Of a DNA stretch of 64,000 bases, positions 5,376-52,360 are shown in pieces; within the stretch, counting starts at the first letter, position 1; every line of letters starts with the position of its first letter. The stretch covers positions 306,243-370,242 of the forward strand of contig CAVOXZ010000011.1 of the NCBI GenBank assembly GCA_963700555.1. The letters run 5' to 3'. The position numbers and the translations under genes are program-made. A model generated the notes under the pieces. That model was not told the DNA's origin. It did not search any database and saw only the letters and a list, made by a program, of their open reading frames with translations. Origin of the DNA: an uncultured Chloroflexia bacterium (lineage in GTDB: Bacteria; Chloroflexota; Limnocylindria; Limnocylindrales; CSP1-4).

Positions 5376-5436
5376 TCGAATGGTACGGTCCCGCGATCAG
5401 CGAGCGCAAGCGCTTGCGCGCATCGAGGAGCGAGCG

Positions 5437-6717
5437 ATGCCCGGACCCGGGATCGAGCTGGTCGGCGCCGAGGAGATGGCCGAGGTCCTGGAGGTCATGC
5501 AGAGTGGCTTCCTGAGCCGCTACGGCCCCGCGGACAACCCCGCGTTCCTGGCCAAGACCCACCGGCTCGAGGTGGAGATGGCGGAGTACCTGGGCACCAA
5601 GCACGCCCTCGCGCTGTCGGGTGGTGGGTCCGCCGCGCTGCTGATCGCGATGCTCGCGCTGGGGATCGGGCCCGGCGACGAGGTCATCGTGCCGGGCTTC
5701 ACCTACGTCGCCTCGATCTCGTCGATCGTGTACGCGGGTGCGACCCCCGTGCTCGCCGAGATCGACGACACGTTCACCCTCGACCCGGCCGATGTCGAGG
5801 CCAGGATCACCCCGCGCACGAGGGCCATCATCGTCGTCCACATGCTCGGTGGCATCGGCCAGCTCGACGAGCTCGTCGCCATCGCCGAGCGGCACGGCAT
5901 CGCGCTCATCGAGGACTGCGCGCAGGCCTTCGGCGGGACGTACCAGGGCCAGCGCGTGGGCGGCATCGGCACCATCGGCACGTTCAGCTTCAACGAGTAC
6001 AAGACGATCACCTGTGGCGACGGCGGCATGATCGCCACGAACGACACCGAGCTCTACGAGCGGGCGTTCGCGATGCACGACCAGGGCCACGCGCCGTACC
6101 GCCTCGAGGCGAAGTACGCGCCCCGACCGTTCCTCGGTCTCAACTTCCGGACGACCGAGCTGTCGTCCGCGGTCCTGCTGGCCCAGCTCCCCAAGTCGGA
6201 CCTCATCGTGGCGCACCTGCGCGCGAACAAGGCGATCGTCAAGGACGCCCTCGCCGACATCTCGGGGATCGCCTTCCGCCAGCTGGTGGATCGGGAGGGC
6301 GATATCGCGACCCACCTCGTGGTGACCCTGCCGTCGGCCGACATCGCCCGGGACGTGGCCGTGACCCTGGGGTCCTGCCAGCTGTCCGAGTCGGGCTGGC
6401 ACACCTACAGCCACATGAACCACCTGCTGGACCAGCGCACGGCGTCCAACAAGGGCTGCCCGTTCCACTGCGGGCACACCGACCACGCCCGGCCCAGCTA
6501 CCGGCCCGGGATGCTGCCGCACACGGACGACCTGCTGGAGCGCTCGCTCAGCATCGGGATCGGGGTGCGCGACGCCAACCTCGCGCCGTACGGGCTGAGG
6601 ATGCGGAGCAGCACGGAGGAGGCCACGGAGCTGGCGACCCACGTTCGGGAGGTGATCCAGCGGCACCTGGCCGCGGCCGACGACGACCCTGGCGGGGCCT
6701 CCGGGGTGCCCCGTTGA
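5437..6717 (+). CDS. DegT/DnrJ/EryC1/StrS-family PLP-dependent aminotransferase
   Basis: ATG at 5437 with an AGGAG ribosome-binding site 6 bp upstream. The sequence shows family hallmarks: FLAKTHRLEVEMAEYLG, ALSGGGSAALLIAML, VIVPGFTYVAS, FSFNEYKTITCGDGGM. The N-terminal 175 codons of the track ORF overlap the minus-strand gene and are not coding. Confidence 0.85.
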   Translation: MPGPGIELVGAEEMAEVLEVMQSGFLSRYGPADNPAFLAKTHRLEVEMAEYLGTKHALALSGGGSAALLIAMLALGIGPGDEVIVPGFTYVASISSIVYAGATPVLAEIDDTFTLDPADVEARITPRTRAIIVVHMLGGIGQLDELVAIAERHGIALIEDCAQAFGGTYQGQRVGGIGTIGTFSFNEYKTITCGDGGMIATNDTELYERAFAMHDQGHAPYRLEAKYAPRPFLGLNFRTTELSSAVLLAQLPKSDLIVAHLRANKAIVKDALADISGIAFRQLVDREGDIATHLVVTLPSADIARDVAVTLGSCQLSESGWHTYSHMNHLLDQRTASNKGCPFHCGHTDHARPSYRPGMLPHTDDLLERSLSIGIGVRDANLAPYGLRMRSSTEEATELATHVREVIQRHLAAADDDPGGASGVPR

Positions 6718-21837: not shown

Positions 21838-22902
21838 ATGGCGCGTCGCGTGCGTCGCTCCAGCGGCCCCCTTGACCTTCGCTCCCAGGCGATCCTTCGG
21901 GCCGTCATCGAGGAATATGTCACCACCGCGCAGCCCGTGGGCAGCCATGCCCTCGTGGAGCGCTATCGGCTGGGCGTGTCCAGCGCCACCGTCCGGGCTG
22001 TCCTCGCGGAGCTCGAGGCGGCCGGGCTGCTCATGCATCCGCACACGTCGGCCGGTCGAGTCCCCACCGAGCACGGCTACCGGTACTACGTCGAGTCCAT
22101 CGTGGAGTCCGTGCCGCTGCCGCCGGTCGAGCAGCTGATGATCCGCCACCAGTTCGGGCAGATCGAGTACGCGAGCGAGCACTGGTTCCGCCTCGCGGCC
22201 ACGACCCTCGCCTCGGTGACCCGCGCGGCCGGCATCGCGACGCCCGCCAAGCCCAGCGCGGCCCACCTGCGGCGCCTGGACCTGGTGAGCATCTCCGACC
22301 GCCTCGCCAGCCTGATCCTCGTCCTGCGCGAAGGGGCGCTCAAGCAGGTCCTCGTGACGCTCGACCACCCTGCCGACCAGGATGCGCTGTCGGTGGTCGC
22401 CAACCGGCTCAACGAGCTGCTCGACGATCACACGGCCGACGAGGCCGAGCGAGTCCTCGCCTCCCTCGACGGCGAGGACCCCGCCACGGATCTGCCGCGC
22501 CGCGTCGGCGAGCGCGTCGTCCGGGCGCTCCAGGAGTTCGACGGGGCCGCGATCGAGGAGCTGTTCAGCGACGGCCTGCTCAACGTGATGGCCGCGCCCG
22601 AGTTCGCCCAGAGCGAGAAGCTTCGCCGCGTGTTCGCGGCCCTCGAGAACCGTGTCTACCTCGCGGAGCTCATCGGCGACGTGGCCGGGAGCGGCCGCGT
22701 CTGCGTCTTCATCGGCTCCGAGAACCCGGCCGAGGAGATGGCGGACGTCTCCCTGGTGCTCGCCCCCTACGGACGGCCCGGCGGCGCCGTGGGCGTGGTC
22801 GGCGTGCTGGGTCCCACCCGGATGGCCTACCCCCACGCCATCGGCACGGTCCGCTTCGTGTCCGGCCTCATGAACGAGCTCACCGAACACCTGTATGCCT
22901 GA
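21838..22902 (+). CDS. hrcA: Heat-inducible transcription repressor HrcA
   Basis: Full-length HrcA (LRAVIEEYVTTAQPVGS...), preceded by CIRCE. Confidence 0.9.
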   Translation: MARRVRRSSGPLDLRSQAILRAVIEEYVTTAQPVGSHALVERYRLGVSSATVRAVLAELEAAGLLMHPHTSAGRVPTEHGYRYYVESIVESVPLPPVEQLMIRHQFGQIEYASEHWFRLAATTLASVTRAAGIATPAKPSAAHLRRLDLVSISDRLASLILVLREGALKQVLVTLDHPADQDALSVVANRLNELLDDHTADEAERVLASLDGEDPATDLPRRVGERVVRALQEFDGAAIEELFSDGLLNVMAAPEFAQSEKLRRVFAALENRVYLAELIGDVAGSGRVCVFIGSENPAEEMADVSLVLAPYGRPGGAVGVVGVLGPTRMAYPHAIGTVRFVSGLMNELTEHLYA

Positions 22903-23503
22903 CCACCACGGCCCTGCGACCCGGAGACCCATGAACCGCAAGACCCGCGCCCAGGAGCGCATCGACGAGCTGGACACCTCACCGGCCGCCCTGCTCGAGC
23001 AGCTCGAAGCCGTCAAGGCCGAGAAGGACGAGGCGATCGCCAAGGCGGACGAGTATCTCGGCGCGCTCCAGCGCGAGCGTGCCGAGTTCACCAACTTCAA
23101 GCGTCGGACGGCCGAGGAGCGCCAGCGGGACCTGGGCCTGGCCGGCGTGGATCTCATCTCCAAGGTGATCAACCTGGCCGACGACTTCGACCGGGCGATC
23201 GAGACCCGGCCCTCCGACCTGGACGGCAGCGCCTGGGCCGATGGCGTCGCTGCCATCGACCGCAAGCTGCGCCTGCTCCTCGAGAGCGAAGGCGTCAGCG
23301 TTGTCGAGGCCTCTCCCGGCACCGCGTTCGACCCACGCGAGCACGAGGCCGTGGTGACGGTTCCCGGAACCGGCCACGCCGAGGGCGAGATCGTGGACGA
23401 GGTCCGCCGTGGCTACCGGCTCCGTGACCGGGTGATCCGCCCCGCGCTCGTCGCGGTCGCCGCGGCCGGTGACGAAGCCGCGCCGGCCGGTCCCATCAAC
23501 TAG
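22895..23503 (+). CDS. grpE: Nucleotide exchange factor GrpE
   Basis: GrpE coiled-coil plus beta-domain ([22 protein letters not shown]...DPREHEAVV). An alternative ATG lies at about 22931. Confidence 0.9.
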
Positions 23504-23556
23504 CCAACCCACCCTTCGATTTCGATCCGGACACCACGATCAGGAGACACCCACGA

Positions 23557-25494
23557 ATGGGCAAGATCATCGGCATCGACCTCGGTACGACCAACAGCGT
23601 CGTCGCGGTGATGGAGGGCGGCGAGCCCACCGTCATCCCGAGCTCCGAGGGCAATCGCACCGTCCCGTCCGTCGTCGGCTTCCCCAAGACGGGCGAGCGC
23701 GTCGTCGGTCAGCTGGCCAAGCGCCAGGCCGTCACCAACCCGACCAACACCGTCTACTCGATCAAGCGCTTCATGGGCCGTCGCTGGGACGACCCGGAGG
23801 TCCAGCGCTCGAAGGGCTTCGTCCCGTACAACGTGGAGAAGGACCCCAAGAGCGACGGCATCCGCGTCGTGGCGGGCGAGCATCACTACACGCCGCCCGA
23901 AGTCAGCGCCATGGTCCTCCAGAAGCTCAAGGCCGACGCCGAGGCCTACCTGGGCGAGAAGGTCACCGAGGCGGTGATCACCGTTCCCGCCTACTTCGAC
24001 GACACGCAGCGCCAGGCCACCAAGGACGCCGGCAGGATCGCGGGCCTCGATGTCAAGCGGATCATCAACGAGCCCACGGCGTCGGCCCTTGCCTACGGCC
24101 TGGACAAGAAGCACGACGAGAAGATCGCCGTGTACGACCTGGGTGGCGGCACGTTCGACATCTCGATCCTCGAGCTGGGCGAGGGCGTGTTCGAGGTCAA
24201 GGCGACCAACGGCGACACGCACCTCGGCGGCGACGACTTCGACCAGCGGGTCATCGACTGGCTGCTGGCCGAGTTCAAGAAGGACCAGGGCATGGACCTC
24301 TCGAAGGACCAGCAGGCCCTGCAGCGGCTCAAGGAGGCCGCCGAGAAGGCGAAGATCGAGCTGTCCTCGACGGCCACGACCGAGATCAACCTGCCGTACA
24401 TCACCGCGGACGCCACCGGACCCAAGCACCTCGTGATCAGCCTGTCACGGGCCAAGCTCGAGGACCTCGTCCGCGACCTGATCGAGAAGACCAAGAACCC
24501 CGTCCTGGCGGCGCTCAAGGATGCCGGCCTCAAGCCGGCCCAGATCGACGAGGTGATCCTCGTCGGCGGCATGACCCGCATGCCGGCCGTCCAGGAGATG
24601 GTCAAGAGCCTGTTCGGCAAGGAGCCGCACCGCGGCGTCAACCCGGACGAGGTGGTCGCCATCGGGGCCGCGATCCAGGCGGGCGTGCTGGGCGGTGAGG
24701 TCAAGGACGTCCTGCTCCTCGATGTCACGCCGCTGTCGCTGGGCATCGAGACCCTGGGCGGCGTCATGACCCGGCTCATCGATCGCAACACGACCATCCC
24801 GACCAGCAAGTCCCAGGTGTTCTCGACCGCGTCGGACAACCAGAGCCAGGTCGAGATCCACGTCCTCCAGGGCGAGCGCGACTTCGCGACCGACAACAAG
24901 ACCCTGGGCCGGTTCATCCTCGACGGCATTCCCCCCGCTCCCCGGGGCGTCCCGCAGATCGAGGTCACGTTCGACATCGACGCCAACGGCATCCTCGATG
25001 TCCGGGCCAAGGACCGTGCCACCGGCAAGGAGCAGCAGGTCCGGATCACGGCCTCGTCCATGCTCAGCAAGGACGACGTGGACAAGATGGTCCGCGACGC
25101 CGAGAGCCACGCCGACGAGGACAAGAAGCGGCGCGAGGAGGTCGAGCTCCGCAACCAGGCCGAGCAGCTGGGCTACCAGGCCGAGCGCACGCTCACCGAC
25201 CTGGGCGACAAGGTGCCGGCCGAGGACCGAGCGGAGATCGAGGCCCAGGTGTCCGCCCTGCGCGAGGCGCTCAAGGGCACTGACACCGAGCTCATCTCGG
25301 CGGGCATGGCCAAGGTCATGGAGACGCTCAACCGCGTGTCCGCGGCCGCGTACCAGGCGTCTGCGTCCGAGGCATCCGCCGGAGACGGGGACGGCACCGG
25401 GCCCGATGGCGACGGAACCTCCGACGACCGAGGGGCCGGGACCCCGGACGGCGCCGCCGATGAGACCGTCGAGGGCGAGTTCAAGGAGGTCTAG
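23557..25494 (+). CDS. dnaK: Molecular chaperone DnaK (Hsp70)
   Basis: [32 protein letters not shown], and an acidic C-terminal tail ending EEV-like (EFKEV). Confidence 0.97.
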
Positions 25495-28015: not shown

Positions 28016-28031
28016 CTGCCCGATCGGGCAG
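28016..28031. promoter_or_regulatory. 16-bp perfect palindrome ctgcccgatcgggcag. A second inverted repeat cgcccgAGAcgggcg lies at about 27988-28002
   Basis: Both lie in the 141-bp gap between the small ORF and the first DUF4157-like gene. Either could be a terminator hairpin or an operator. Confidence 0.4.
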
Positions 28032-28112
28032 CGTGTTCTGCCTGTCGACGGGTTCCTCGCGCCGGAGCGCGTGCCTACTCTCGGTCATCGAGACCCCTGA
28101 TCAGGGACGTCG

Positions 28113-28367
28113 ATGCCCGATCGTCGCTTCCAGCGCGAGCCCGACACGGCTTCGCGACCGCTCCCGGGTTCCGGGACCGTCCGCCGTGCCGGCTCGCCCC
28201 TCGTCGAGGCGGCCCTCGCCCTCCAGCGCCTGGCCGGCAACCGCTCATTCGCCGAGCTCGTCGGCCCCGGTGTCGGCGTGCAGCGCGAGCCGTGCACCGA
28301 CTGCCCCGAACCCGATCCGCTGGCGGCGCCGGACACAGCGCTCCCCGAGTCGGATACGCAGGGGTGA
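28113..28367 (+). CDS. Small protein (84 aa) carrying an N-terminal LQRLAGNRSF motif (DUF4157-like leader signature)
   Basis: ATG start, and GC3 of about 88 percent. The motif PLVEAALALQRLAGNRSFAELV matches the LQRxxGNxAV signature I recall at the N-terminus of DUF4157-family proteins. The stop TGA overlaps the next gene's GTG (GTGA). Confidence 0.5.
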   Translation: MPDRRFQREPDTASRPLPGSGTVRRAGSPLVEAALALQRLAGNRSFAELVGPGVGVQREPCTDCPEPDPLAAPDTALPESDTQG

Positions 28368-31300
28368 GCGCCCCGACCACCGTTGCGGCGCGGGCCCGGC
28401 AGACAGCCCGAGCCGACACGGCGAGCCCCGCTCGATCGCCGTCAGGTCCGGCCGAGGCAGCAGGCCCCAGCGAGGGCGCGTCGCTGCTCGCGGCGGACTT
28501 CGCGGGCCAGCGGTCGTCGGTCCAGGCGGCGGCCTGGGACCCGGGAACCGCGCTCGCGCCTCGTCCGCGAGTCCGTGCCGACGATGCGGGCGCACCTCCG
28601 CTCGCGCGGACCGGGGGCAGCGTCCGCTGGCTGTCGCAGCCGGCGGCGAACGCCAGGGGCCCATTGCTCGATCTGCAGCGGCTCGCGGGCAATGGCGCGG
28701 TCGCCCGGGCCCTGCAGCGTGGCCCGGCTGCACGTCCGCCGCGCGACACCACCCCGCGGGCCGGTCCTTCCGCGGAACCCAGCCTCCAGCGCCTGGAGAT
28801 CCCCGGACTGGGCGATGTCGACATCTCGGGCTACATCAGCCGCGCCCTCTCGATCCTCGGTCCAGCCGAGGAATCCCGGGACAAGGCCCGAACGGATGCG
28901 CGCACCCAGGCCGACGATGCCGCCCAGACAACGGATGCCGCGGTGGCCAGCGGCAACCAGCAGCTCGATGCGGGCAAGATCGCCGCCGAGCAGGCTGGCG
29001 AGACGGGGTTCACGGAGGCGCAGGCCGGGACCGATGCGGCTGCGACCGCCGGCAGGGATGAGACCGCTGCCGGCAAGGCGCACGGCGACCACGTGGCCCA
29101 GGAGATCAGCGGGATCGAGGGCTCGGTCGAGGGCATGGTCGACCCGCTCGCCAGGGAGGCGGGCTCCTCCGAGGGCGATGCCGGCCACCAGGCGATCGAC
29201 CAGGCCACCGAACACGCCGTCCAGCCGAGTGGGGCCGCCGACCACACGGCACCCCAGGAACCCGGGATCGAGACCGTTCCCGGCCAGCTGACCCCGACCG
29301 GTGCCGAGCCGGCCGTCTCCCACGGACCCGGGCCGCCCGGCCCTGAAGCCCCGACGCACAACGCCGGAGCGCCGGCGCCAGCGACGGAGCACGGCCCGGC
29401 CCAGGCGGGCGGAGGCGCGGACCACGGCGCCCCCGCACCCGAACCCGGCCAGGCGCCGGCGGCCGGGCCGTCCAGCCCGGCCCAGGCCCCAACCTCCGCG
29501 GTTCCCGGCGGCCAGTCGGCCACGCCTGCGGGCGGCGGGTCGCAACCCAAACCGGCGACGCCGTCGGGTGCCTCGCCGGCTGGTGCCCCGGGACCGAAGC
29601 TCGGCGCCGACGCTGGCGGGGTGGCGGCAGCCGGCGCCCCGACATGTGCGCTCGTCGAGGCCCTCAAGACCGTGACGGGCTGGCGAGACAAGGTGAAGAG
29701 CTTCGCAAGCGGCGTCCTCGCCGAGGTAGGCAAGACACAGATCCCGGGCCTTGGGATCACGGTGGCGGAGCTCGCCGGTAAGGCGAGGCAGGCCGCCCTG
29801 TGGGTCAAGAAGGGCGTCGATGGGATCAAGGACAAGGCCGTCGCCTGGGCCCACAAGAAGGCGGCCGGCATCAAGAAGACCATCACCGACAAGCTCGCCA
29901 CCGCGAAGCGGGTGATCGATGCCACGGTCACCGGGGTCAAGACCGCCATCAAGGGCGCCAGGGAGGTCGTCAGCGGTCTGTGGGACGCCGCGAGGGACGG
30001 CGTCAGCGCCACGATCCAGCAGATCCGGGTCGGCGCTGGGCGCCTTGTGCAGGCGGCGATCGGACGGGTCCGGAGTTTCGTGAACGGACTTCCAGGCCCG
30101 GTCAGGGGGCTTCTTGGTGCCGCGGGCAACCGGATCCGGTCCCTGGTCGGCGGCGATCCGCTGGGGGATGCCGCCGCGTACCTCAGTTCCAGGTGGCAGG
30201 CCGCCAAGGACGGCCTGCGCCGCGCAAAGGAGGGTGCCGTCAAGGTCGCGAAGGCCGTCGCCGACAGCACCGTCAAGGTCGCGGCCACCAAGGTCAAGGA
30301 GGCAACGACCATCGCGAAGGGCGTCGTCGATACCGCCAAGACGGTCGCCCCGTACGTCCTGGGTGTCGCCGCCCCGGGTGCGGTCGCGGTCGCCGGCGCG
30401 GCCAGGGCCGCGGCGGGCCAATGGGGCAAGCAGCTTCGCGACGGCGCCGACCGCGTCAAGAAGGCGATCAAGGGCGAGGCCTGTGAGGCGATCGGCGAGA
30501 CGGTGGGTCCCTGCCTGGACATGTACCTCCCCAAGCCCGACAACAAGGAAAAGGGGTTCGCCAAGCTCAGTGGACAGGCCGACGTCACCGTTCCGCTCCA
30601 CGAAGTCGGCGTCCCGTGCAACGTCAAGGTCGGGCGCGGGGCTTCGGTCTCGGTCGAGCGGACGTCGTCCGGGTACGGCGTGGCCGTCGATGGCGATGCG
30701 TTCGTCTTCGCCAACCTGGCGGCCGGCAAGCAGGGGACCAAGACGGAGGCCAAGGTCGAGCTGCCCACGGGCGGGATGGCCACCGTCTGGGAGCACCTCA
30801 GCGGCGTGCCGGCGGGTCCGCCGGCCGGCGGACCGGCACCTGCGACACCCGCCACGGGCGGCGCACCCGCGGCGCCGGCTCCGACAGGCCCCGCTGCAGG
30901 GGCCCCTGCTGCCCCCAAGCCCAGGGCACCCGGCCAGGCGCCCGGTGGCGGCGGCCCGGACGTCTCGGGCGAGGTTGAAGGTGGCGTCAAGGGCTCCGCG
31001 AACCTCAAGTTCTCCTTCCCGACCGCCGGCGCCACCACCTGCGAGGGTGCAGGGGGCGTGGCGTCGCTGCTCGGGGCGCTCGGGGTGGCGGCATCGCTTC
31101 CGGCGCCGCTCGACGTGCTCGCCAAGTCAGGCGTCGTCGGGGGCTGGGAGGGAAACCTGGTCTCGAACACGGTGACCATGGGAATCGCCGGTGGGGGACA
31201 GGTCGAGGTGTCCGAAGAGGGTCTCGGCGCGCTCAAGGCCCAGGGCCAGGGCGAGACATACATGACCACGGGCGTGGAGCGCCCCGACCAATCGACCCTC

Positions 31301-32002
31301 GGGGGCACGCCGACGCCGGCTGCGGGTGCGGACCCAGGAACGGCTGGCGGCGTCGACAAGAACCTGAGCGGGTCATACGCGAAACCAGCCACGGGATCCG
31401 ACCCCAACGCCCTTCGCCCGGTGCTCAAGATCGGCACCGCGGTCAAGGGGGAGGCGGCGGCTGAGCTGGCCGCCTCCAAGCTCATGCCGGCGAAGGCCGG
31501 CGTCTCGGGGTCTGCCCGGATCGAGGCCCTGCTGCTCTACGACAAGCCGGCCGACCGGATCATCCTGCAGTCCGTCACGGCGTCCGGTGAGCTCGGCGTG
31601 TCCGTCGGCGGGATCAACCCGGCCCTGGTGGCATCTCAGCTCGCGAGCCCGGTCGGTCCCGCGGCTGCGGCGAAGATCACGAGCCTCGGGCTTGCGCACA
31701 GCAACGGGTCGATCAAGGCGTCGGTCACCGGCAAGGCCGACAACCTGCAGAAGTACATCGACACCGTCGGCAAGTACCTGGGCGGCCCCCCGTCGGGAGT
31801 CTCGGCCTCGGGCCTGGCGTCGGCCGTCCGCGCCGTCCATGCCCCGGGGGACTTCTCGACCGCCGTGCAGGTCACGGCGACGCTCAGCGACCGGATCGGG
31901 ATGGAGGGCAAGGTCGAGCAGCTCGGGAAGTCGGGCGAGAAGCTGGGCGCGAGCGCGAAAGGCTCGCTCGAGATCGGCAAGGAGTACCAGCTCTACCCGT
32001 AG
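28364..32002 (+). CDS. Giant low-complexity protein of about 1,212 aa with a second LQRLAGNGAV motif near residue 100. It contains Ala/Lys amphipathic repeats, a Cys-containing module and a Pro-rich linker. Function is unknown
   Basis: The frame stays open for about 3.6 kb with coding-like GC3. The GTG at 28364 is translationally coupled to the upstream ORF. The track ORF start at 27911 is rejected because the first 450 nt overlap the upstream gene and the intergenic palindromes and translate to Arg/Pro-rich sequence. No HExxH motif is present. Confidence 0.6.
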   Translation: MSAPTTVAARARQTARADTASPARSPSGPAEAAGPSEGASLLAADFAGQRSSVQAAAWDPGTALAPRPRVRADDAGAPPLARTGGSVRWLSQPAANARGPLLDLQRLAGNGAVARALQRGPAARPPRDTTPRAGPSAEPSLQRLEIPGLGDVDISGYISRALSILGPAEESRDKARTDARTQADDAAQTTDAAVASGNQQLDAGKIAAEQAGETGFTEAQAGTDAAATAGRDETAAGKAHGDHVAQEISGIEGSVEGMVDPLAREAGSSEGDAGHQAIDQATEHAVQPSGAADHTAPQEPGIETVPGQLTPTGAEPAVSHGPGPPGPEAPTHNAGAPAPATEHGPAQAGGGADHGAPAPEPGQAPAAGPSSPAQAPTSAVPGGQSATPAGGGSQPKPATPSGASPAGAPGPKLGADAGGVAAAGAPTCALVEALKTVTGWRDKVKSFASGVLAEVGKTQIPGLGITVAELAGKARQAALWVKKGVDGIKDKAVAWAHKKAAGIKKTITDKLATAKRVIDATVTGVKTAIKGAREVVSGLWDAARDGVSATIQQIRVGAGRLVQAAIGRVRSFVNGLPGPVRGLLGAAGNRIRSLVGGDPLGDAAAYLSSRWQAAKDGLRRAKEGAVKVAKAVADSTVKVAATKVKEATTIAKGVVDTAKTVAPYVLGVAAPGAVAVAGAARAAAGQWGKQLRDGADRVKKAIKGEACEAIGETVGPCLDMYLPKPDNKEKGFAKLSGQADVTVPLHEVGVPCNVKVGRGASVSVERTSSGYGVAVDGDAFVFANLAAGKQGTKTEAKVELPTGGMATVWEHLSGVPAGPPAGGPAPATPATGGAPAAPAPTGPAAGAPAAPKPRAPGQAPGGGGPDVSGEVEGGVKGSANLKFSFPTAGATTCEGAGGVASLLGALGVAASLPAPLDVLAKSGVVGGWEGNLVSNTVTMGIAGGGQVEVSEEGLGALKAQGQGETYMTTGVERPDQSTLGGTPTPAAGADPGTAGGVDKNLSGSYAKPATGSDPNALRPVLKIGTAVKGEAAAELAASKLMPAKAGVSGSARIEALLLYDKPADRIILQSVTASGELGVSVGGINPALVASQLASPVGPAAAAKITSLGLAHSNGSIKASVTGKADNLQKYIDTVGKYLGGPPSGVSASGLASAVRAVHAPGDFSTAVQVTATLSDRIGMEGKVEQLGKSGEKLGASAKGSLEIGKEYQLYP

Positions 32003-38649: not shown

Positions 38650-39731
38650 TGGGCACGGTCCGCTTCCACCGGGTGCGGGTCCCGTTCCGCGTCCCGTTCG
38701 CGACCGCCGCCGGGTCCTGGACGACGCGCGAATCGTGGCTGGTGCGCATCGCCGATGACGAGGGGCGTGCGGGCTGGGGGGAGGCGGTGCTCGAGGACGA
38801 GGCCGACATCCCGGTGCTCGAGGCGCTCCTCGGTGACCTGGCGGCGGTGGGCCTTGCTCCCTCACCGGCGCTCGTCTCGCGGGCCGGAGGAGCCGGCCAG
38901 GCGTTCCGGGCGGCATTCGACGGGGCGCGGCTGGACGTCCTCGCGCAGGGTCCCCAGGCGACCGCTGCCCGGCCTCCCAGCGTCGGCGTCAACGCGGTCC
39001 TCGCCGCGACCAACGTCGAGGCGGCTGCGGCGGCCGCCGCAGCGGCGGTGGACGCCGGCTTTCGCACCCTCAAGATCAAGGCCGCGCCCGGCGACACGAC
39101 CGCGACCCTGGTGGCGCGGGTGGCGGCCGTGCGGGCCGCGGCCGGGGACCAGGCCGCGATCCGGCTGGACATGAACGGCACCTGGAAGCTCGAGGCAGCG
39201 GTCGAGCGGCTGCGGGCGCTGGCCGGCTTCGACCTGGCCTACGTGGAGCAGCCCCTCCCGCCGAAGGATCTCGCCGGCGCCGCGGCACTGCGCGGGCGGA
39301 CGGGGGTCCCGGTCGCGGCGGACGAGGCGGTCGACTCGGTCGAAGGGGCCAGGGCCGTGCTTGCGGCCGGCGCGGCCGACATCCTGGTCGTCAAGCCGGC
39401 ACGGGTCGGAGGGCCGGTGCCGGTGGCGGAGATCGCCTCGCTGGCGGCGGAGCTGGACGTGCCGGTCGTGGTGAGCTCGATGTTCGAGACGGGGGTGGGC
39501 CTGGCGGTGGCGCTCGCATGTGCCTCGGTCCTTCCGGATGTGCCCGGGTGGCCGGCGATCGAGCGCGACCACGGCCTTGCCACGGCGGACCTGCTCGAGG
39601 ACGACCTCATCCTCGCGCCATTGGCCGTGACCGCCGGGCGCATGCAGGCGCCGTTCGATCCGGGCTGCGGGGGCCTGGGGGTGACGGTGGACGAGGCGGC
39701 CCTGGATCGCTACGGCGTGGACGACGAGTGA
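38649..39731 (+). CDS. menC: o-succinylbenzoate synthase (enolase superfamily)
   Basis: Enolase-superfamily barrel (KIKAAPGD, LDMNGTW, YVEQPL, VVKPARVGG). TGATG overlap with menA. Confidence 0.8.
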   Translation: MGTVRFHRVRVPFRVPFATAAGSWTTRESWLVRIADDEGRAGWGEAVLEDEADIPVLEALLGDLAAVGLAPSPALVSRAGGAGQAFRAAFDGARLDVLAQGPQATAARPPSVGVNAVLAATNVEAAAAAAAAAVDAGFRTLKIKAAPGDTTATLVARVAAVRAAAGDQAAIRLDMNGTWKLEAAVERLRALAGFDLAYVEQPLPPKDLAGAAALRGRTGVPVAADEAVDSVEGARAVLAAGAADILVVKPARVGGPVPVAEIASLAAELDVPVVVSSMFETGVGLAVALACASVLPDVPGWPAIERDHGLATADLLEDDLILAPLAVTAGRMQAPFDPGCGGLGVTVDEAALDRYGVDDE

Positions 39732-41944
39732 CGGCGTGGTTCGCTGACGAGCGTCTGGCGGCCATCGCTCGCGACGCCGGCAATTCGCCGGCGATCGTGG
39801 ACGGCAGCGACGAGCTGACGTGGCGCGAGCTCGACCGCCGGGCATCCGCGGCCGCGACCCTGGTGTCGGTGGGGGGCGTGGGCTCGGGCGAGCGCGTGGC
39901 CCTGCCGGGCGAGGCGTCGGTTGATGCCGTCGCCGCGATCCTCGGTGTCCTGCGTGCGGGGGCGGTGGCGGCGCCCGTGCCGTCGGGCCTCACCGCTCGC
40001 GAGCTGGCCGCTGCGACGAGGTCGCTCGACCCGGCGCTCGTCCTGCGCGCGGTCGACCTCGCGGGCAGGGATGCGTCCGGGGCCACGACGCCTGGGGCAG
40101 CCGGGCGTGATCCCGAGGGCCCCGCGGTGGTGGTCGGGACGTCGGGGACCACCGGCGCGCCGCGGGGCGTGGTGCTCTCGCACCGGGCGATGGCCGCGAG
40201 CGCCGACTCCTGGATGACCGTGCTGCCACCGGCCACGGGCTGGGTGCTGGCCCTCGAGCTGGCACACGTCGCCGGCCTCGGGATCCTGTGGCGGGCGCTC
40301 CGCGACGGAGTCCCGATCCGGATCGTGCCCCGCGGCGACCCGGCCGCCCTGCTCCGCGCCCTGGGGTCCGAGCCGGCTCCCAGTCACGTGTCGCTCGTGC
40401 CCGCCCAGCTCGCCCGCCTCCTCGACATCGCCCCCGGCCCGCCTCCGCGCACGCTCCGGGCGGTGCTCCTCGGCGGCGGCCCGATCCCGCCTGCGCTCGT
40501 GACCACGGCGCTCGGCGCGGGCTGGCCGATCGTGCCCACCTACGGGCTCTCGGAGGCCGCGTCCGGCGCCACTGCGCTCGACCCGGAGGAGGCCTGGGAT
40601 CACCCGGGTTCCGCCGGGCGACCGCTGCCCGGTGTCCACCTCGCCATCGCGGACGAGGGGCCGGACGGTGTCGGGGAGATCGTCCTGCAGTCCACCGCCC
40701 GCTGCTCCGGCTACCTGGGCGACGGGCCGGCGCCCGCGGCGCCCGCGGCGCCTGATGACCCAATCCGCACCGGCGACCTCGGCCGGCTCGACGGCGACGG
40801 CCGCCTGTTCGTCGTGGACCGGCGCCTCGACCGGATCGTCCGCGGCGGGGAGAACATCGCGCCGGCCGAGGTCGAGGCCGTCATCCTCGAGCACCTGGCC
40901 ATCGTCGACGCGGCCGTGGTCGCCCGGCCCGATGCGGAGCTGGGCCAGGTCCCGGTCGCGGCGATCGTGCTCCGCCCCGGCTCCCCGGACCCCGGGGACG
41001 AGGCGCTCGCCGCCCACGCCCGCACGTCGCTGGCCGGGTTCAAGGTCCCGGCAGCCTGGATCCGTCTCGACGTGCTGCCCCGGACCGCCGGCGGCAAGCT
41101 TCGCCGGGGGGCCGTCCGCGCGCTGCTCGCCGGGGAGCCCGCCGGCCAGCTGGCCAGGCCCGGCGGCGATGCGATCGGCTGGCGCGTCACGGGTACCGGA
41201 TCGCGGCACGTGCTCCTGCTGCACGGGACGCTCAGCACGGCGAAGCAGCTGGATCGACTGGCGCAGGCACTCTCGGAGCCCGGGGACATCACGGTCCACG
41301 CCCTTGACCGGCGCGGCAGCGGCTCGAGCCGCCTGTCGGCCCCTCGCCCACTCGACGTCGCCACCCATGTCGACGACGTCCGCGCCTACCTCGACGCCCG
41401 GGCCATCGATCGTGTCGACGTCGCGGGCATGAGCTTCGGGGGAGCGCTCGCGCTCGAGCTCGCGGCGCGGCTTCCGGACAGGGTGCGCGCCGTCGTCGCG
41501 TACGAGCCGCCGTATGGTCCTGCCGCCGACCCCGAGACCCTCGCCTGGTTCCAGGGCCTCGCCGCCGAGACCGCGCGCGCCCACGCCGAACGTGGCCCGG
41601 CCGGCGCGGCGGAGACGTTCCTGCGCGCGGTCGCAGGTGACGCGGCCTGGGACCGGCTCCCCGCGCGGGGTCGGCTGTTCCTCGAGGAGGAAGGCGACGG
41701 CGCCCTGGCCGACGCGGGCCTGACCGGCCTGGACCCCGACGGCCTTGGCCGGATTGCGTGCCCCGTCGCGATCCTGACCGGCGGCGCGTCGGAGCCGTTC
41801 TACGCCCCGATCGCCGATGCCCTCGCCGCGCGGATCCCGGGCGCTCGCCGCGATACCCTCGAAGGCCTCACGCATCCCGCGCCCATCACGCAGCCGGGCA
41901 TCATGGCCGCCGCCATCCGAGCCTGCCTGGAGCCTTCTGAGTGA
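39728..41944 (+). CDS. menE: o-succinylbenzoate-CoA ligase (MenE), fused to a C-terminal alpha/beta-hydrolase domain of about 290 aa
   Basis: The AMP-binding domain shows VGTSGTTGAPRGV, TYGLSEAASG, GDLGRLDGDGRLFVVDRRLDRIVRGGENI and PRTAGGKLRR. The C-terminal domain has LLLHGT, a GxSxG elbow (AGMSFGG) and a distal His (LTHPAPI). Confidence 0.8.
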   Translation: MTAWFADERLAAIARDAGNSPAIVDGSDELTWRELDRRASAAATLVSVGGVGSGERVALPGEASVDAVAAILGVLRAGAVAAPVPSGLTARELAAATRSLDPALVLRAVDLAGRDASGATTPGAAGRDPEGPAVVVGTSGTTGAPRGVVLSHRAMAASADSWMTVLPPATGWVLALELAHVAGLGILWRALRDGVPIRIVPRGDPAALLRALGSEPAPSHVSLVPAQLARLLDIAPGPPPRTLRAVLLGGGPIPPALVTTALGAGWPIVPTYGLSEAASGATALDPEEAWDHPGSAGRPLPGVHLAIADEGPDGVGEIVLQSTARCSGYLGDGPAPAAPAAPDDPIRTGDLGRLDGDGRLFVVDRRLDRIVRGGENIAPAEVEAVILEHLAIVDAAVVARPDAELGQVPVAAIVLRPGSPDPGDEALAAHARTSLAGFKVPAAWIRLDVLPRTAGGKLRRGAVRALLAGEPAGQLARPGGDAIGWRVTGTGSRHVLLLHGTLSTAKQLDRLAQALSEPGDITVHALDRRGSGSSRLSAPRPLDVATHVDDVRAYLDARAIDRVDVAGMSFGGALALELAARLPDRVRAVVAYEPPYGPAADPETLAWFQGLAAETARAHAERGPAGAAETFLRAVAGDAAWDRLPARGRLFLEEEGDGALADAGLTGLDPDGLGRIACPVAILTGGASEPFYAPIADALAARIPGARRDTLEGLTHPAPITQPGIMAAAIRACLEPSE

Positions 41945-44548: not shown

Positions 44549-44995
44549 ATGGATGCAACGCGCTACCTGTCGGCCAAGGAAGCGGCCGAGCGCCTGGGGA
44601 TCAGCCTGCGGACGGTACGGCGGCGGATCGCGGACGGATCGCTGCCCAGCGTGAAGGTCGGCGGGGCCGTGCGAATCCCGACGTCCGCCCTGGAGCCGGC
44701 GGCTGCCGCGTCGGGATCGCACGCCGTCCGCGAGGCGGCTGCGCCATACGCCGCCGATCAGGAGTCACGCGAGGCCTACGTCCGGCGCTGGAACCGGGAC
44801 CACTGGCCGGACAGCTACGAGCGCATGCTGGAGCGTCGACGGGAAGGGTTCGAGCAGCTGGCGGAGGCGAGAAAGCGCACCAAGCCGCCGACCGGTCCGC
44901 ACGACACCGTTGACGCCATCCTCAACCAGGTCCGTGACGAGTTCGGCGCCCGCCTGCTCCAGTTCATCCCCGAGCGCAAGGAGTCCGCGGAATGA
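44549..44995 (+). CDS. Excisionase/MerR-type HTH DNA-binding protein. Probable antitoxin of the adjacent PIN toxin
   Basis: HTH LSAKEAAERLGISLRTVRRRIADGSLPSVKVGGAVRIP. A 4-nt overlap (ATGA) joins it to the downstream PIN gene. The alternative TTG start at 44513 would overlap the promoter. Confidence 0.6.
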   Translation: MDATRYLSAKEAAERLGISLRTVRRRIADGSLPSVKVGGAVRIPTSALEPAAAASGSHAVREAAAPYAADQESREAYVRRWNRDHWPDSYERMLERRREGFEQLAEARKRTKPPTGPHDTVDAILNQVRDEFGARLLQFIPERKESAE

Positions 44996-45444
44996 GCGCA
45001 GCCGTCATCGATGCGAGCGTCGTCCTCCGCTGGGCGTTCGAGGATGAGGCTGACCGCGAGGGAGCCGACCATGTCGCGGCGGCGATCGCGTCAGGTCAGC
45101 TCGATGTCGAAGGCCCGCCGAACTTCCTGCTCGAGGTCTGCGCGGCGCTCGTGATCGGGCTGCGGACGGGAAGGATCGACCGTGTCACCGCCGCTGACGT
45201 GCTCGCCGGGCTGGCCAAGGTGTCGATCCTGGAGGGTGACCCGCACGGGTTCGCCATCACCGCGTTCGAGCTTGCGCTGGACCATGGCATCCGGGTGCCG
45301 GATGCCGCGTACGTCGAGACTGCCCGGCGTTCGCGTGCCGTGCTGATCAGCGCCGACCGTGCACAGCTCCAGGCGGCGGCCGACCTCGGTGTCGCCACGG
45401 TGCCGATCGCGGAGGTCAGGTCGGGCTTTCCTGACAGCTCCTGA
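44992..45444 (+). CDS. vapC: PIN-domain ribonuclease (VapC-like toxin)
   Basis: N-terminal VIDASVVL, conserved acidic residues (E in LLEVCAAL, D in VPDAAYVETARR, D in LISAD), and a size of about 150 aa. Confidence 0.75.
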   Translation: MSAAVIDASVVLRWAFEDEADREGADHVAAAIASGQLDVEGPPNFLLEVCAALVIGLRTGRIDRVTAADVLAGLAKVSILEGDPHGFAITAFELALDHGIRVPDAAYVETARRSRAVLISADRAQLQAAADLGVATVPIAEVRSGFPDSS

Positions 45445-50209: not shown

Positions 50210-51326
50210 ATGACCGCCGAACGCGACTTCTACGAGGTGCTGGGCGTCGAGCGCTCAGCGTCCGACGCCGAGATCAAGCGCGCCTTCCGCAAGCTCGCCC
50301 AGCAGTGGCACCCGGACGTGAACGCGGACGGCGAGGCGCAGCAGCGGTTCAAGGAGATCAACGAGGCGTACCAGGTCCTCTCCGACCCGCAGCGCCGCCA
50401 GAGCTACGACATGTTCGGGCGGGCAGGAGTCGGTGGCGGGGCCGGCGCGGATCCGTTCGGCGGCGCGGCGGGGTTCGGCGGCTTCTCGGACATCTTCGAC
50501 GCGGTGTTCGGCGGCGGGATGGCCGGTTCGGCGCGACGCGCCCGGCCGGCCCAGGGCTCCGACCTGCGCTACGACCTCCGGATCTCGTTCGAGGAGGCGG
50601 TCCTCGGCGTCGAGAAGGAGATCGAGTTCCCGGTTCTCGGCCGGTGTGACACCTGCGGCGGCTCGGGCGCGAAGGGGGACGCCGAACCGCTGCAATGCCC
50701 CCAGTGCAACGGACGCGGCGAGATCCGGTCGATCCGCCAGACGATGCTGGGCCAGATGGTCAACGTCACGGCATGCCCTCGGTGCCGGGGCGAGGGCAAG
50801 ATCGTGGAGAACCCGTGCGAGACCTGCCGGGGCGAGGGCCGCACGGAGCGTCGCCGCAGCCTGCGCGTGACGATCCCGGCGGGGATCGACGAGGGGCACC
50901 AGATCCGCCTCACCAACGAGGGCGAGGTCGGGCCGCGCGGCGGCCCGGCCGGCAGCCTGTACGTCGCCGTCCACGTCGCGCGCGCACGCGTCGCTCACGC
51001 GCGAGGGGACCGAGCTCTACTACGAGGCGGACCTCTCGATCGCCCAGGCGGCCCTCGGGACCCGGCTCAGCGTGCCGATGGTCGACGGCGAGGACGCCGA
51101 GGTCGAGATCAAGCCCGGTACCCAGCCGGGGACGGAGATCCGCCTCCGGGGCAAGGGTGTCCCGCACCTGCGCCGGCAGTCGGTTCGGGGCGACCTCCAC
51201 GTGATCGCCAACGTGGTCGTGCCCTCGAAGCTGTCGAAGAAGCAGCGCGAGCTGCTGGAGGCCTACGCGAAGGAAGCGGGCGAGACGGTCTCTGGGCCCG
51301 GGCTGCGCGAGAAGCTGGGCCTGTAG
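50210..51326 (+). CDS. dnaJ: Molecular chaperone DnaJ, with an apparent +1 frameshift near 50980 inside a gcgcgcgcacgcg run
   Basis: The J-domain (HPD: QWHPDVN), G/F region and four CxxCxGxG zinc-finger repeats read in frame 2 up to ...SLYVAVHVA. The conserved C-terminal domain ([20 protein letters not shown]...[24 protein letters not shown]) continues in frame 0 as the separate track ORF 51072-51326. Confidence 0.8.
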
Positions 51327-52360
51327 TGGGCGGGGGAGCCCCCGAGCCTTCTTCGCCGCTCGCCGGCGCCGGAGCGGTCGACGGACTGGACCTCGATGCG
51401 GCGGCCGCCACGCCCGGCGCCTGGCTGGAGCTCTCGGTGGCGGCGGACCACGAAGCGGTCGAGGCCGTGTCGGAGATCCTGTCCCGGGCCGCGCCCGGCG
51501 GCACCAGCGTGGAGCCGGCGTTCGAGCTGGTGGAGGAGGGGCTCGCGGCTCGCGTGGACCTCGCCCGGCCAGCCCTGGTGCGCGCCCACCTGCCGCTGCT
51601 CGATCTCGGAGCCATTCGCGATGCCGTCGCCCGCGTCGAGCGGGACCTGGGGCACCTGCAGGCGTTCGGGCTGCGGCCGATCGGCGACCTCTCCGCCACG
51701 ATCGTCCACGAGGCGGACTGGGCAAACGCCTGGAAGGCGCACTTCCCGGTGCTGCGAATCGGGCGCCGGATCGTGATCCGGCCGACCTGGCGTCGCCACC
51801 GACGACAGCCTGGCGACGTCGTCCTGGCGCTGGACCCGGGGATGGCGTTCGGGACAGGCCTCCATCCCACGACGCGGCTGTGCCTCGCTGCGCTCGAGGG
51901 GCTCGCGGACCGGGGGGTGCTCACGGGGGGCGCGGCCGACGGCGGGCCGACACGCGTGCTCGACGTGGGATCAGGCTCCGGGATCCTCTCGATCGCCGCG
52001 GCCAAGCTGGGCGCGCGCGGGGTCCTGGCCGTCGATGTCGATCCGATCGCGGTGGAGGCATCCGCGGCCAACGCTCGCCGGAACCGGCTGGCCCGCGTGA
52101 TCCGCGCCCGGGAAGGGAGCGCTCCGACCGGCGAGGGCCCGTTCGACGTGATCCTGGCGAACCTGATCGCGTCGCTGCTGGTCACGCTCGCCGACGGGCT
52201 CGTCGCGGATCTGCGTCCGGGTGGCGTCCTCCTCGCGTCGGGGATCTTCGCCAACCGCGAGGCCGATGTCGTGGCGGCGTTCGAGGCGCGTGGCCTGGTC
52301 ATCGACCGGCGCTGGGACGAGGGCGACTGGGTGGCGCTGGAGGCCCGCCTCAGGGCCTGA
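51326..52360 (+). CDS. prmA: Ribosomal protein L11 methyltransferase
   Basis: PrmA motifs ([37 protein letters not shown]). The GTG start overlaps the dnaJ stop by 1 nt. It occupies the downstream part of the 50210-52360 track ORF. Confidence 0.85.

Follow-up and report, generated by a model that had tools for sequence, protein, structure and literature searches.

The DNA analysed here, a 64,000-nucleotide stretch of contig CAVOXZ010000011.1 from an uncultured Chloroflexia bacterium (hereafter the window), carries two consecutive genes, one for a small and one for a giant protein, which share a short leader box built around LQRLAGN. We tentatively read this gene pair as an orphan module of a contractile injection system (CIS) encoded elsewhere, made up of an adaptor or co-cargo and an effector, a reading that we hold to be quite possible and somewhat short of probable. 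The general reach of the box is a by-product of this work, and a more interesting one than the pair itself.

The first-pass annotation, made from the sequence alone, had described two adjacent open reading frames (ORFs) that carry LQRLAGN and are joined by a GTGA overlap, and this description is borne out by the translations, by database records and by shuffling. The motif is present in both translated proteins: the full 84-residue translation of 28113-28367 is MPDRRFQREPDTASRPLPGSGTVRRAGSPLVEAALALQRLAGNRSFAELVGPGVGVQREPCTDCPEPDPLAAPDTALPESDTQG, with the motif segment PLVEAALALQRLAGNRSFAELV, and residues 101-120 of the giant, numbered from the GTG at 28364, are LLDLQRLAGNGAVARALQRG. The context preceding the overlap reads ...CAG GGG TGA. 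Third-position GC favours coding for both frames in this window of 72% G+C, and the NCBI/ENA records P0001 (1212 aa) and P0027 (84 aa) have exactly the boundaries seen here. Translated in all six frames, the window has two occurrences of the pattern LQR..GN, against a mean of 0.02-0.03 in shuffled windows (200 mononucleotide and 200 codon-block shuffles), none of the 400 reaching two. The added claim that each protein opens with the motif holds for the small protein, where it starts at residue 37, and not for the giant, where it starts unusually deep, at residue 104; only 4 of the 136 motif-bearing proteins described below have the box at residue 100 or beyond.

The comparison across loci covers seven related loci (L001-L007) from metagenome-assembled genomes of uncultured Chloroflexia, which with the window give eight loci with a full-length giant; the nine-locus alignments also include L014. 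In all eight, a small-family ORF lies directly upstream of the giant and is closed by its own stop, with LQK replacing LQR in the small protein of L007. The start/stop overlap is GTGA in the window, while L001 has ATGA and L002 has TTGA; in the remaining five loci the genes are about 16-88 nt apart, for an overall range of -4 to about +88 nt. Judged from these sequences, the tight linkage of the two genes is conserved and the overlap itself is not. The frame of the small ORF relative to the giant is offset by 2 in the window and L001 and by 1 in L003-L006, and in L003 and L006 an intergenic stretch has neither frame open. Both boxes are invariant or nearly so in eight to nine loci, and the synonymous codon variation at their conserved residues indicates selection at the protein level.

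It had also been suggested that a -1 frameshift divides a single gene into the two ORFs; the break could stem from an indel in sequencing or assembly, or the gene could be a real pseudogene. Checking this was worthwhile because the assembly does hold apparent frameshifts, dnaJ being split over two frames near 50.9 kb; a 1-nt indel also lies near the start of the small gene of L002, and the genomes of the relatives are themselves assembled from metagenomes. The homologues refute the suggestion, as they encode two separate genes in eight of eight loci rather than one continuous ORF. The stop that ends the small ORF is never missing, frame and spacer vary from locus to locus, the stretch between the genes is closed in both frames in two of them, the conserved N-terminus of the giant (M[ST]A...) coincides with its annotated start, and free-standing proteins of 84-125 aa make up about 30 independent entries in the databases. 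We therefore regard a single split gene as scarcely credible. In L002 itself (approximately 5735-5765) the 1-nt indel lies a few codons past the ATG (ATGCCCGGTCATCGATTCAG...) and leaves the conserved reading frame there without a start codon; it is a sequencing error or recent decay.

The small protein consists of an N-terminal MPDRRFQRE, the leader box and a second box, VQREPCTDCPE, followed by a tail that is poorly conserved past the CxxC. The invariant positions are L35, L37, Q38, R39, G42, N43, R44, S45 and L49 in the leader box, and V56, Q57, R58, P60, C61, D63, C64 and P65 in the second. All of the roughly 30 family members come from Chloroflexota-type metagenomes. Of the 31 matches at E ≤ 1e-3, 30 have no Pfam domain; the weakest, P0047 (E = 2.8e-4), has glutathione-S-transferase domains and not PF13699. 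When the small family was aligned to the N-termini of the giants, hhalign gave a probability of 90.6% (E = 1.3e-6) over only 31 columns centred on the box, and BLASTP between the two window proteins gave E = 0.003. The same layout of a leader box followed by VQR and a Cys-rich stretch is found in P0061 and P0016, and in the N-terminal regions of DUF4157 proteins. As far as its sequence tells, the small protein is essentially a stand-alone copy of a leader-bearing N-terminal region, with leader box, VQR box and CxxC, and the earlier idea that it is a leader paralogue or adaptor is supported by this layout and by the hhalign result.

A conserved N-terminal "leader" together with a conserved C-terminal PCxDCP motif would also suit a precursor from which a ribosomally synthesised, modified peptide is made (leader plus Cys-containing core), with no relation to the giant. 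We consider this highly improbable, given that no modification enzyme, peptidase-transporter or cyclase is conserved beside the pair in any context, that the tail after the CxxC varies, and that the same box occurs on proteins of up to about 1000 aa with enzymatic domains.

The spread of the box was determined by an exhaustive hidden Markov model search, in which a 44-column profile was run against 1.84 billion representative proteins (50%-identity clusters) and recovered at least 1329 clusters at E ≤ 1e-3. The detailed figures refer to the 138 best matches outside the pair's own family, of which 136 bear the motif. In these 136 proteins the box spans about 30 residues with the consensus [VLI]-L-[AD]-L-Q-R-x-A-G-N-[RAQ]-A-V-x-x-[LM]-L-x-R, its median offset is residue 36, it falls within the first 60 residues in 127, and 23 proteins have more than one copy. 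Pfam recognised T6SS_HCP in 10 of the 138, eCIS_core in 8, PG_binding_1 in 3, and Tox-HNH-HHH and VanY in one each. A search of PDB sequences with the box profile gave nothing, and a word-index search with the 44-column alignment returned only 206 candidates with 2 short matches. No paper with the motif strings was found in the literature searched, and the DUF4157 publications examined do not mention the box. One metagenomic protein, P0073 (1498 aa), has six IALQRPAGNTIANGG repeats inside Ig-like/CARDB repeats, and was set aside as probably a chance look-alike.

The eight eCIS_core matches tie the box to extracellular contractile injection systems (eCIS), for which DUF4157 (PF13699, eCIS_core) is a highly specific marker, with an odds ratio of 2614 (PMC8213781). 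In these proteins the box lies 20-200 residues upstream of the HExxH zinc-binding signature, and a VQR box with a Cys-rich stretch often comes after it. The RefSeq "DUF4157 domain-containing protein" WP_329418089, from a Streptomyces plasmid, carries LQRLAGN in its N-terminus (MSPRQALTLQRLAGNTAVARTL), and one locus (L010) encodes an eCIS-type AAA+ ATPase with a winged-helix domain, followed by two proteins that combine the box with eCIS_core. The first-pass suggestion of a link between LQRxxGNxAV and eCIS effectors is upheld by these three observations. Its companion, that the string is the signature at the start of DUF4157 proteins, stands as an association (8 of 138 with PF13699) and falls as a description of the family model, outside which the box lies; nor is the box a general signature of DUF4157 proteins, as it is missing from a Caballeronia plasmid protein, including the sequence that precedes the annotated start. 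At L010 (8372-12928; also in L009), P0066 (975 aa) contains two units of leader box plus HExxH, with boxes at about residues 39 and 317, and is an internal tandem duplication of the whole leader-plus-domain unit; upstream of it lie the AAA+ ATPase and a 483-aa protein with leader, eCIS_core and a Tlde1-like region.

The pair itself does not carry the DUF4157 domain that had been suspected in one ORF or the other. A Pfam scan of both window proteins at E ≤ 1 recovered no family, NCBIfam gave no match to either, and the HExxH signature is in neither. A DUF4157 profile (A9), built from matches found in this analysis, reached an hhalign probability of 0.1% against the giant family and 0.3% against the small family. 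A degenerate DUF4157 relic at giant residues 195-303 was considered and is not claimed, the best alignment being non-significant (0.1%).

The modularity of the system becomes apparent in two further loci (L014 and L015), where a small-family gene, P0043, is followed by the 516-aa P0068 in place of the giant. In a BLASTP comparison, residues 37-174 of P0068 match residues 20-143 of the giant, and only this N-terminal module is shared; past the second invariant QR box, P0068 has an unrelated, metzincin-like C-terminus with HEFGHAIGIDH and a weak Reprolysin_4 match. In P0016, a distant giant-like protein, a small-type leader (LQRLAGNRSV...VQRCGEGCGCCG) is fused at the protein's own N-terminus. 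Because of the P0068 arrangement and this fusion, we take the small partner and the N-terminal module to form the constant unit and the cargo to be exchangeable. A constant N-terminus with exchangeable cargo is a hallmark of polymorphic toxin/effector systems (PMC3482391), and P0068, with the same small partner, provides the combination of a constant N-terminal trafficking region and unrelated C-termini.

The small protein could also be thought of as an immunity protein, antitoxin or inhibitor of a toxic giant, with which the tight linkage, probable co-translation and fast co-evolution of the pair and the C-terminal swapping of polymorphic-toxin type would all agree. An immunity protein, however, should follow the toxin domain, whereas the small gene stays with the N-terminal module despite the complete change of cargo in L014; it lies upstream and not downstream, its trafficking-type box is common to the giant, and a small-type leader is fused to a giant-like protein in P0016. 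This explanation is accordingly very unlikely.

Other leader-bearing genes also occur in pairs. In L008 (10001-11887, on a metagenomic contig of 74% G+C) a gene for a 184-aa Hcp-like protein is followed by one for a 442-aa protein without a Pfam domain; both proteins have the leader box at about residue 35, GerE-type regulators are adjacent, and no injection-system genes lie within 10 kb. L018 combines a leader-Hcp protein with a second leader-like protein 2 kb away.

In the window the pair is preceded by lepA, hemN, hrcA, grpE, dnaK, trkH and trkA and followed by tetR, menaquinone genes, transporters, a toxin-antitoxin pair, dnaJ and prmA. The arrangement dnaK...pair...tetR-men is kept in five relatives, and in the remaining two the pair lies amid ABC-transporter/sigma-factor genes or between ilv/leu genes and an MMPL transporter. 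It thus forms a unit in three unrelated housekeeping contexts, and because these contexts differ we conclude that it moves as a unit. Nothing downstream of the pair is conserved across contexts: the gene after the giant in the window is the conserved TetR regulator of the men locus, and the one after P0068 in L014 encodes 68 aa with a faint DUF6487 match. Both tetR and a 79-aa upstream ORF were rejected as members of the module, being absent from the alternative contexts. In the closest relatives (L001-L003) identity is 69-74% for the giant and 37-65% for the small protein, well below that of the flanking hrcA, dnaK and tetR in the same loci (89-96%), which indicates that the pair evolves fast.

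Upstream of the small gene lies a perfect palindrome (Table 1), a candidate regulator-binding site to judge from its conservation, whose columns are invariant also in the unrelated contexts L004, L007 and L014 and which has no second copy in the window. There, the small gene begins with codons (ATGCCCGATCG) that repeat one half of the palindrome; in L001-L003 the repeat is imperfect (ATGCCCGGTC). At the promoter-like pair that follows, relatives have TTGnCC at the -35-like site and an invariant TAnnnT at the -10-like site (conserved alignment columns T104, C126/T127/A128/T132); a strict sigma-70 consensus scan found nothing at 28053-28081. Because the palindrome, the TCTGCCT element and the -35/-10-like pair are kept in nine of nine loci, the module appears to have its own control region.

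The giant has 15 homologues of 1050-1312 aa, none of them with a Pfam domain, whose start is conserved as M[ST]A.... Its first 100 residues are poorly conserved outside short boxes, and this Ala/Pro/Arg/Ser-rich stretch may, by its composition, be disordered; the N-terminal module also contains an ASLLAADFA box. In the basic helical region, AlphaFold2 predicts helices of up to 100 residues with a low predicted local distance difference test score (pLDDT), and a hydrophobic segment at residues 660-685 ends the region. Residues 430-665, approximately, match five tail tape-measure PHROGs (E = 4.3e-7 to 1.1e-3); such matches were also obtained for P0006, P0010 and P0016 (3e-4 to 1e-3) and not for P0014. 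This region is weakly tape-measure-like in sequence, and its composition may contribute to the matches. The C-terminal region has about 12 long predicted strands of 15-24 residues, most of them clearly amphipathic, with Pro/Ala/Gly insertions, and is tentatively modelled as a β-barrel of about 12 strands with Pro/Ala/Gly linkers. Foldseek comparison of the giant models with viral structures gave nothing significant. The giant has no evident Sec signal peptide, its N-terminus (MSAPTTVAARARQTARADTASP...) being without a hydrophobic core, and Kyte-Doolittle windows above 1.4 start only at residues 660 and 895.

On the injection-system reading, the small gene would be translated first and the giant then by translational coupling through the stop/start overlap, which is probable in this genome because the small-gene TGA overlaps the giant GTG. 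The leader box would direct the two proteins to an injection machine of phage-tail type whose genes lie elsewhere in the genome; the small protein would either travel as co-cargo or serve the N-terminal module of the giant as its adaptor. The giant may be a membrane-active, channel-forming effector, whose N-terminal module and small partner would remain constant while the C-terminal cargo is exchanged as in polymorphic toxins. Published systems offer some precedent. In AlgoCIS, a disordered N-terminal region is needed for loading via an AAA+ protein, DUF4157 is dispensable and a cargo of 1228 residues is loaded (bioRxiv 10.64898/2026.05.27.728243). The Streptomyces CIS has tape-measure-like effectors, namely Tme (PMC11126660) and Sle1, the latter with a small partner, SLIV_17110 (bioRxiv 10.1101/2025.11.06.686954), and class IId eCIS have been found in filamentous Chloroflexi (PMC10020575).

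Several points weigh against this reading. DUF4157 is in neither protein, and most of the 138 best box matches are without it, about 85% of them having no Pfam domain at all. The box of the giant lies at about residue 104 instead of the canonical 36. No injection-system gene turned up in the 64 kb of the window, nor in the 10 kb around the pair in any other context covered, L011 and L012 (±10 kb) among them; several box-bearing genes (L008, L018, L016) lie amid housekeeping genes so that the tag may serve another pathway, and no immunity-like gene is evident downstream of the pair. The tape-measure matches are weak and could reflect an Ala/Lys-rich coiled-coil composition, and the β-barrel comes from low-confidence models (pLDDT 44 and 51) built on only 15 sequences. 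Finally, according to the AlgoCIS preprint, different systems do not share conserved loading sequences (bioRxiv 10.64898/2026.05.27.728243).

Several of these observations agree with a different account, the main rival, in which the LQRxAGNxxV box is recognised or cleaved by a trans-acting protease or directs a different Sec-independent route of export in high-GC bacteria, and the pair is a cell-envelope or pore protein with a dedicated small chaperone, independent of any contractile injection system. Besides the lack of injection-system genes near the pair in three contexts and the many top leader-bearing proteins without a Pfam domain, it would accommodate the leader-Hcp genes and an orphan DUF4157 gene amid housekeeping genes, the vertical inheritance of the pair in a stable dnaK-men locus in most relatives, a predicted C-terminal β-barrel without enzymatic toxin domains, as expected of a structural pore, and a module boundary that falls exactly at the second invariant QR box, a possible processing site. 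We nevertheless judge it unlikely, if worth serious attention. The sole machine-linked context seen for the box is the end of an eCIS operon, and eCIS_core and Hcp are the only annotated domains that recur on proteins with the box; the HNH toxin, VanY and metzincin-like protease cargo resemble effectors and not envelope proteins; and no Sec signal peptide is evident, nor is an alternative exporter candidate conserved beside the pair. A broader proposal is that the LxLQRxAGNxAV box is an undescribed, widespread N-terminal sorting or recognition signal, independent of DUF4157 and of injection-system loci, and that the pair is a two-partner system, in which the free leader protein, by pairing with the leader module of a channel-forming giant, would drive export or delivery of the giant by another route. 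The box would then tag nucleases, metalloproteases, cell-wall hydrolases and Hcp-like proteins as well as giants of pore-like type. We rate this proposal as rather improbable.

The recognition and loading of cargo is a central question in the field of contractile injection systems, still open, and limits their engineering as delivery tools; in published work the loading regions are disordered and not conserved between systems. The box is short, sharply conserved, placed at a fixed N-terminal distance and present in more than 1000 clusters with or without DUF4157, which makes it a candidate recognition signal that can be mutated. The Chloroflexia pair offers a natural dissection of such a signal, comprising a free leader protein, a giant cargo without peptidase and a sister locus with a different cargo. 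The box would also flag many "orphan" effectors far from injection-system loci, which neighbourhood-based predictors miss.

Table 1. Features of the gene pair and its upstream region (window coordinates; residues numbered within each protein).
Feature	Position	Strand	Detail	Basis
14-nt perfect palindrome and TCTGCCT	28017..28043	+	Palindrome TGCCCGATCGGGCA (28017-28030), then TCTGCCT (28037-28043)	Invariant, 9 loci
Promoter-like pair	28053..28081	+	-35-like TTCCTC (28053-28058), 17-nt spacer, -10-like TACTCT (28076-28081)	Conservation only
Small gene	28113..28367	+	84 aa	Coding frame; identical database record P0027
Leader box of small protein	28209..28262	+	Residues 33-50, ALALQRLAGNRSFAELV	Invariant columns; offset fits median 36
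Second box of small protein	28278..28310	+	VQREPCTDCPE (V-Q-R, then CxxC)	Invariant columns; codon variation, 9 loci
GTGA start/stop overlap, small/giant	28364..28367	+	GTG 28364-28366, TGA 28365-28367; 4 nt	
Giant gene	28364..32002	+	1212 aa; GTG start	Coding frame; identical record P0001
N-terminal module of giant	28364..28792	+	Residues 1-143	Invariant columns; shared with P0068 in L014
Ala/Pro/Arg/Ser-rich stretch of giant			Residues 1-100; 27% Ala, 12% Pro, 11% Arg, 10% Ser	
Leader box of giant	28664-28702	+	Residues 101-113, LLDLQRLAGNGAV	Invariant columns
Conserved QRLEIPGLG... box of giant			Residues 141-170; invariant QR at 142-143 closes the N-terminal module	
Acidic region of giant			Residues 171-300; net charge -16	
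Ala/Pro/Gly linker of giant			Residues 301-427	
Basic Ala/Val/Lys-rich helical region of giant	29645..30463	+	Residues 428-700; charge +27	AlphaFold2, PHROG, hydropathy, charge
C-terminal β-rich region of giant	30464..31999	+	Residues 701-1212	Low-confidence AlphaFold2 model

Some other features of the window deserve mention. The heat-shock genes are divided between hrcA-grpE-dnaK (21838-25494) and dnaJ-prmA (50210-52360), about 25 kb apart, with trkHA, the pair, tetR, the menaquinone genes, transporters and the toxin-antitoxin pair in between. The split dnaJ (50210-51326) has DnaJ, the Cys-rich domain and DnaJ_C positions 1-62 in one frame (50210-50950) and DnaJ_C positions 72-152 in a second one (50871-51326); the former continues open into prmA, giving a spurious 716-aa DnaJ-PrmA "fusion" ORF, and the split is probably an assembly indel, or else marks a pseudogene. 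The men cluster includes a 738-aa ORF (39728-41944) in which an AMP-binding (MenE-like) enzyme is followed by a fused C-terminal alpha/beta-hydrolase domain. At 44549-45444, genes with an HTH_17 (excisionase-type) and a PIN domain overlap by 4 nt and form a VapBC-like toxin-antitoxin pair. On the reverse strand, 2760-5396 is a coding-looking stop-to-stop ORF of 878-879 aa without a Pfam match at E ≤ 1e-4.

Among known systems, transmembrane β-barrels (autotransporter β-domains, CymA, OmpG, FadL) are only 5-8% identical to the C-terminus of the giant, which differs from them in having no Sec signal peptide and in its 15-24-residue strands with long Pro/Ala/Gly insertions. Chloroflexia are generally regarded as having no outer membrane. 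On the predicted models, the likeness is a fold resemblance at most and not family membership.

A small partner encoded with a large polymorphic toxin is also known from the LXG toxins of type VII secretion systems (T7SS), with their Lap partners, and from effectors of type VI secretion systems (T6SS), with Hcp or adaptors. As in the Chloroflexia pair, an upstream small gene accompanies the conserved N-terminal trafficking domain when the cargo is swapped; pairs of leader-Hcp and leader-effector genes also exist (L008). There is, however, no sequence relationship; Pfam recognised no WXG/LXG, PAAR or MIX motif, nor are there T6SS or T7SS genes close to the pair. The comparison is an organisational analogy only.

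Parallels are also found in the Streptomyces effectors Tme and Sle1, large, mostly disordered or coiled-coil proteins with tape-measure similarity and hydrophobic segments, which the giant may resemble in view of its predicted helices and weak tape-measure matches; Sle1, like the giant, has a small protein encoded in tandem. In S. lividans this small partner binds the N-terminal region of the effector and the spike complex (bioRxiv 10.1101/2025.11.06.686954). The Streptomyces partner is a DUF4157 protein, whereas that of Chloroflexia consists of the leader region only; the Streptomyces genes lie beside sheath/baseplate genes, whereas the Chloroflexia pair is an orphan; and the Streptomyces C-termini are a nuclease or a helical membrane hairpin, in contrast to the predicted β-barrel of the giant.

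The DUF4157/eCIS_core (PF13699, PVC-metallopeptidase) effectors, such as Cgo1 and Cgo2 of AlgoCIS and the eCIS-associated toxins (EATs), differ from the pair in possessing DUF4157 and HExxH, in the position of the box (about 36, against 104 in the giant) and in that a dedicated leader-only small partner is undescribed for them. The pair also falls outside the EAT definition, location within about 10 genes of an eCIS operon (Geller 2021/Danov 2024), as only housekeeping genes are nearby across the window and in the 10-kb flanks in L011 and L012. The effectors and the pair are nonetheless alike in their box-bearing N-terminal region, disordered in the effectors and perhaps so in the pair, in tandem box-bearing genes, in size (1228 residues for Cgo2 against 1212 for the giant) and in the constant N-terminus with variable C-terminal cargo (PMC3482391). 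Such effectors often have no adjacent immunity gene (PMC3482391), and none is evident downstream of the pair. The pair is best filed as a polymorphic effector of the eCIS/Photorhabdus virulence cassette (PVC) type, without the peptidase domain, with a leader-only partner and in an orphan locus.

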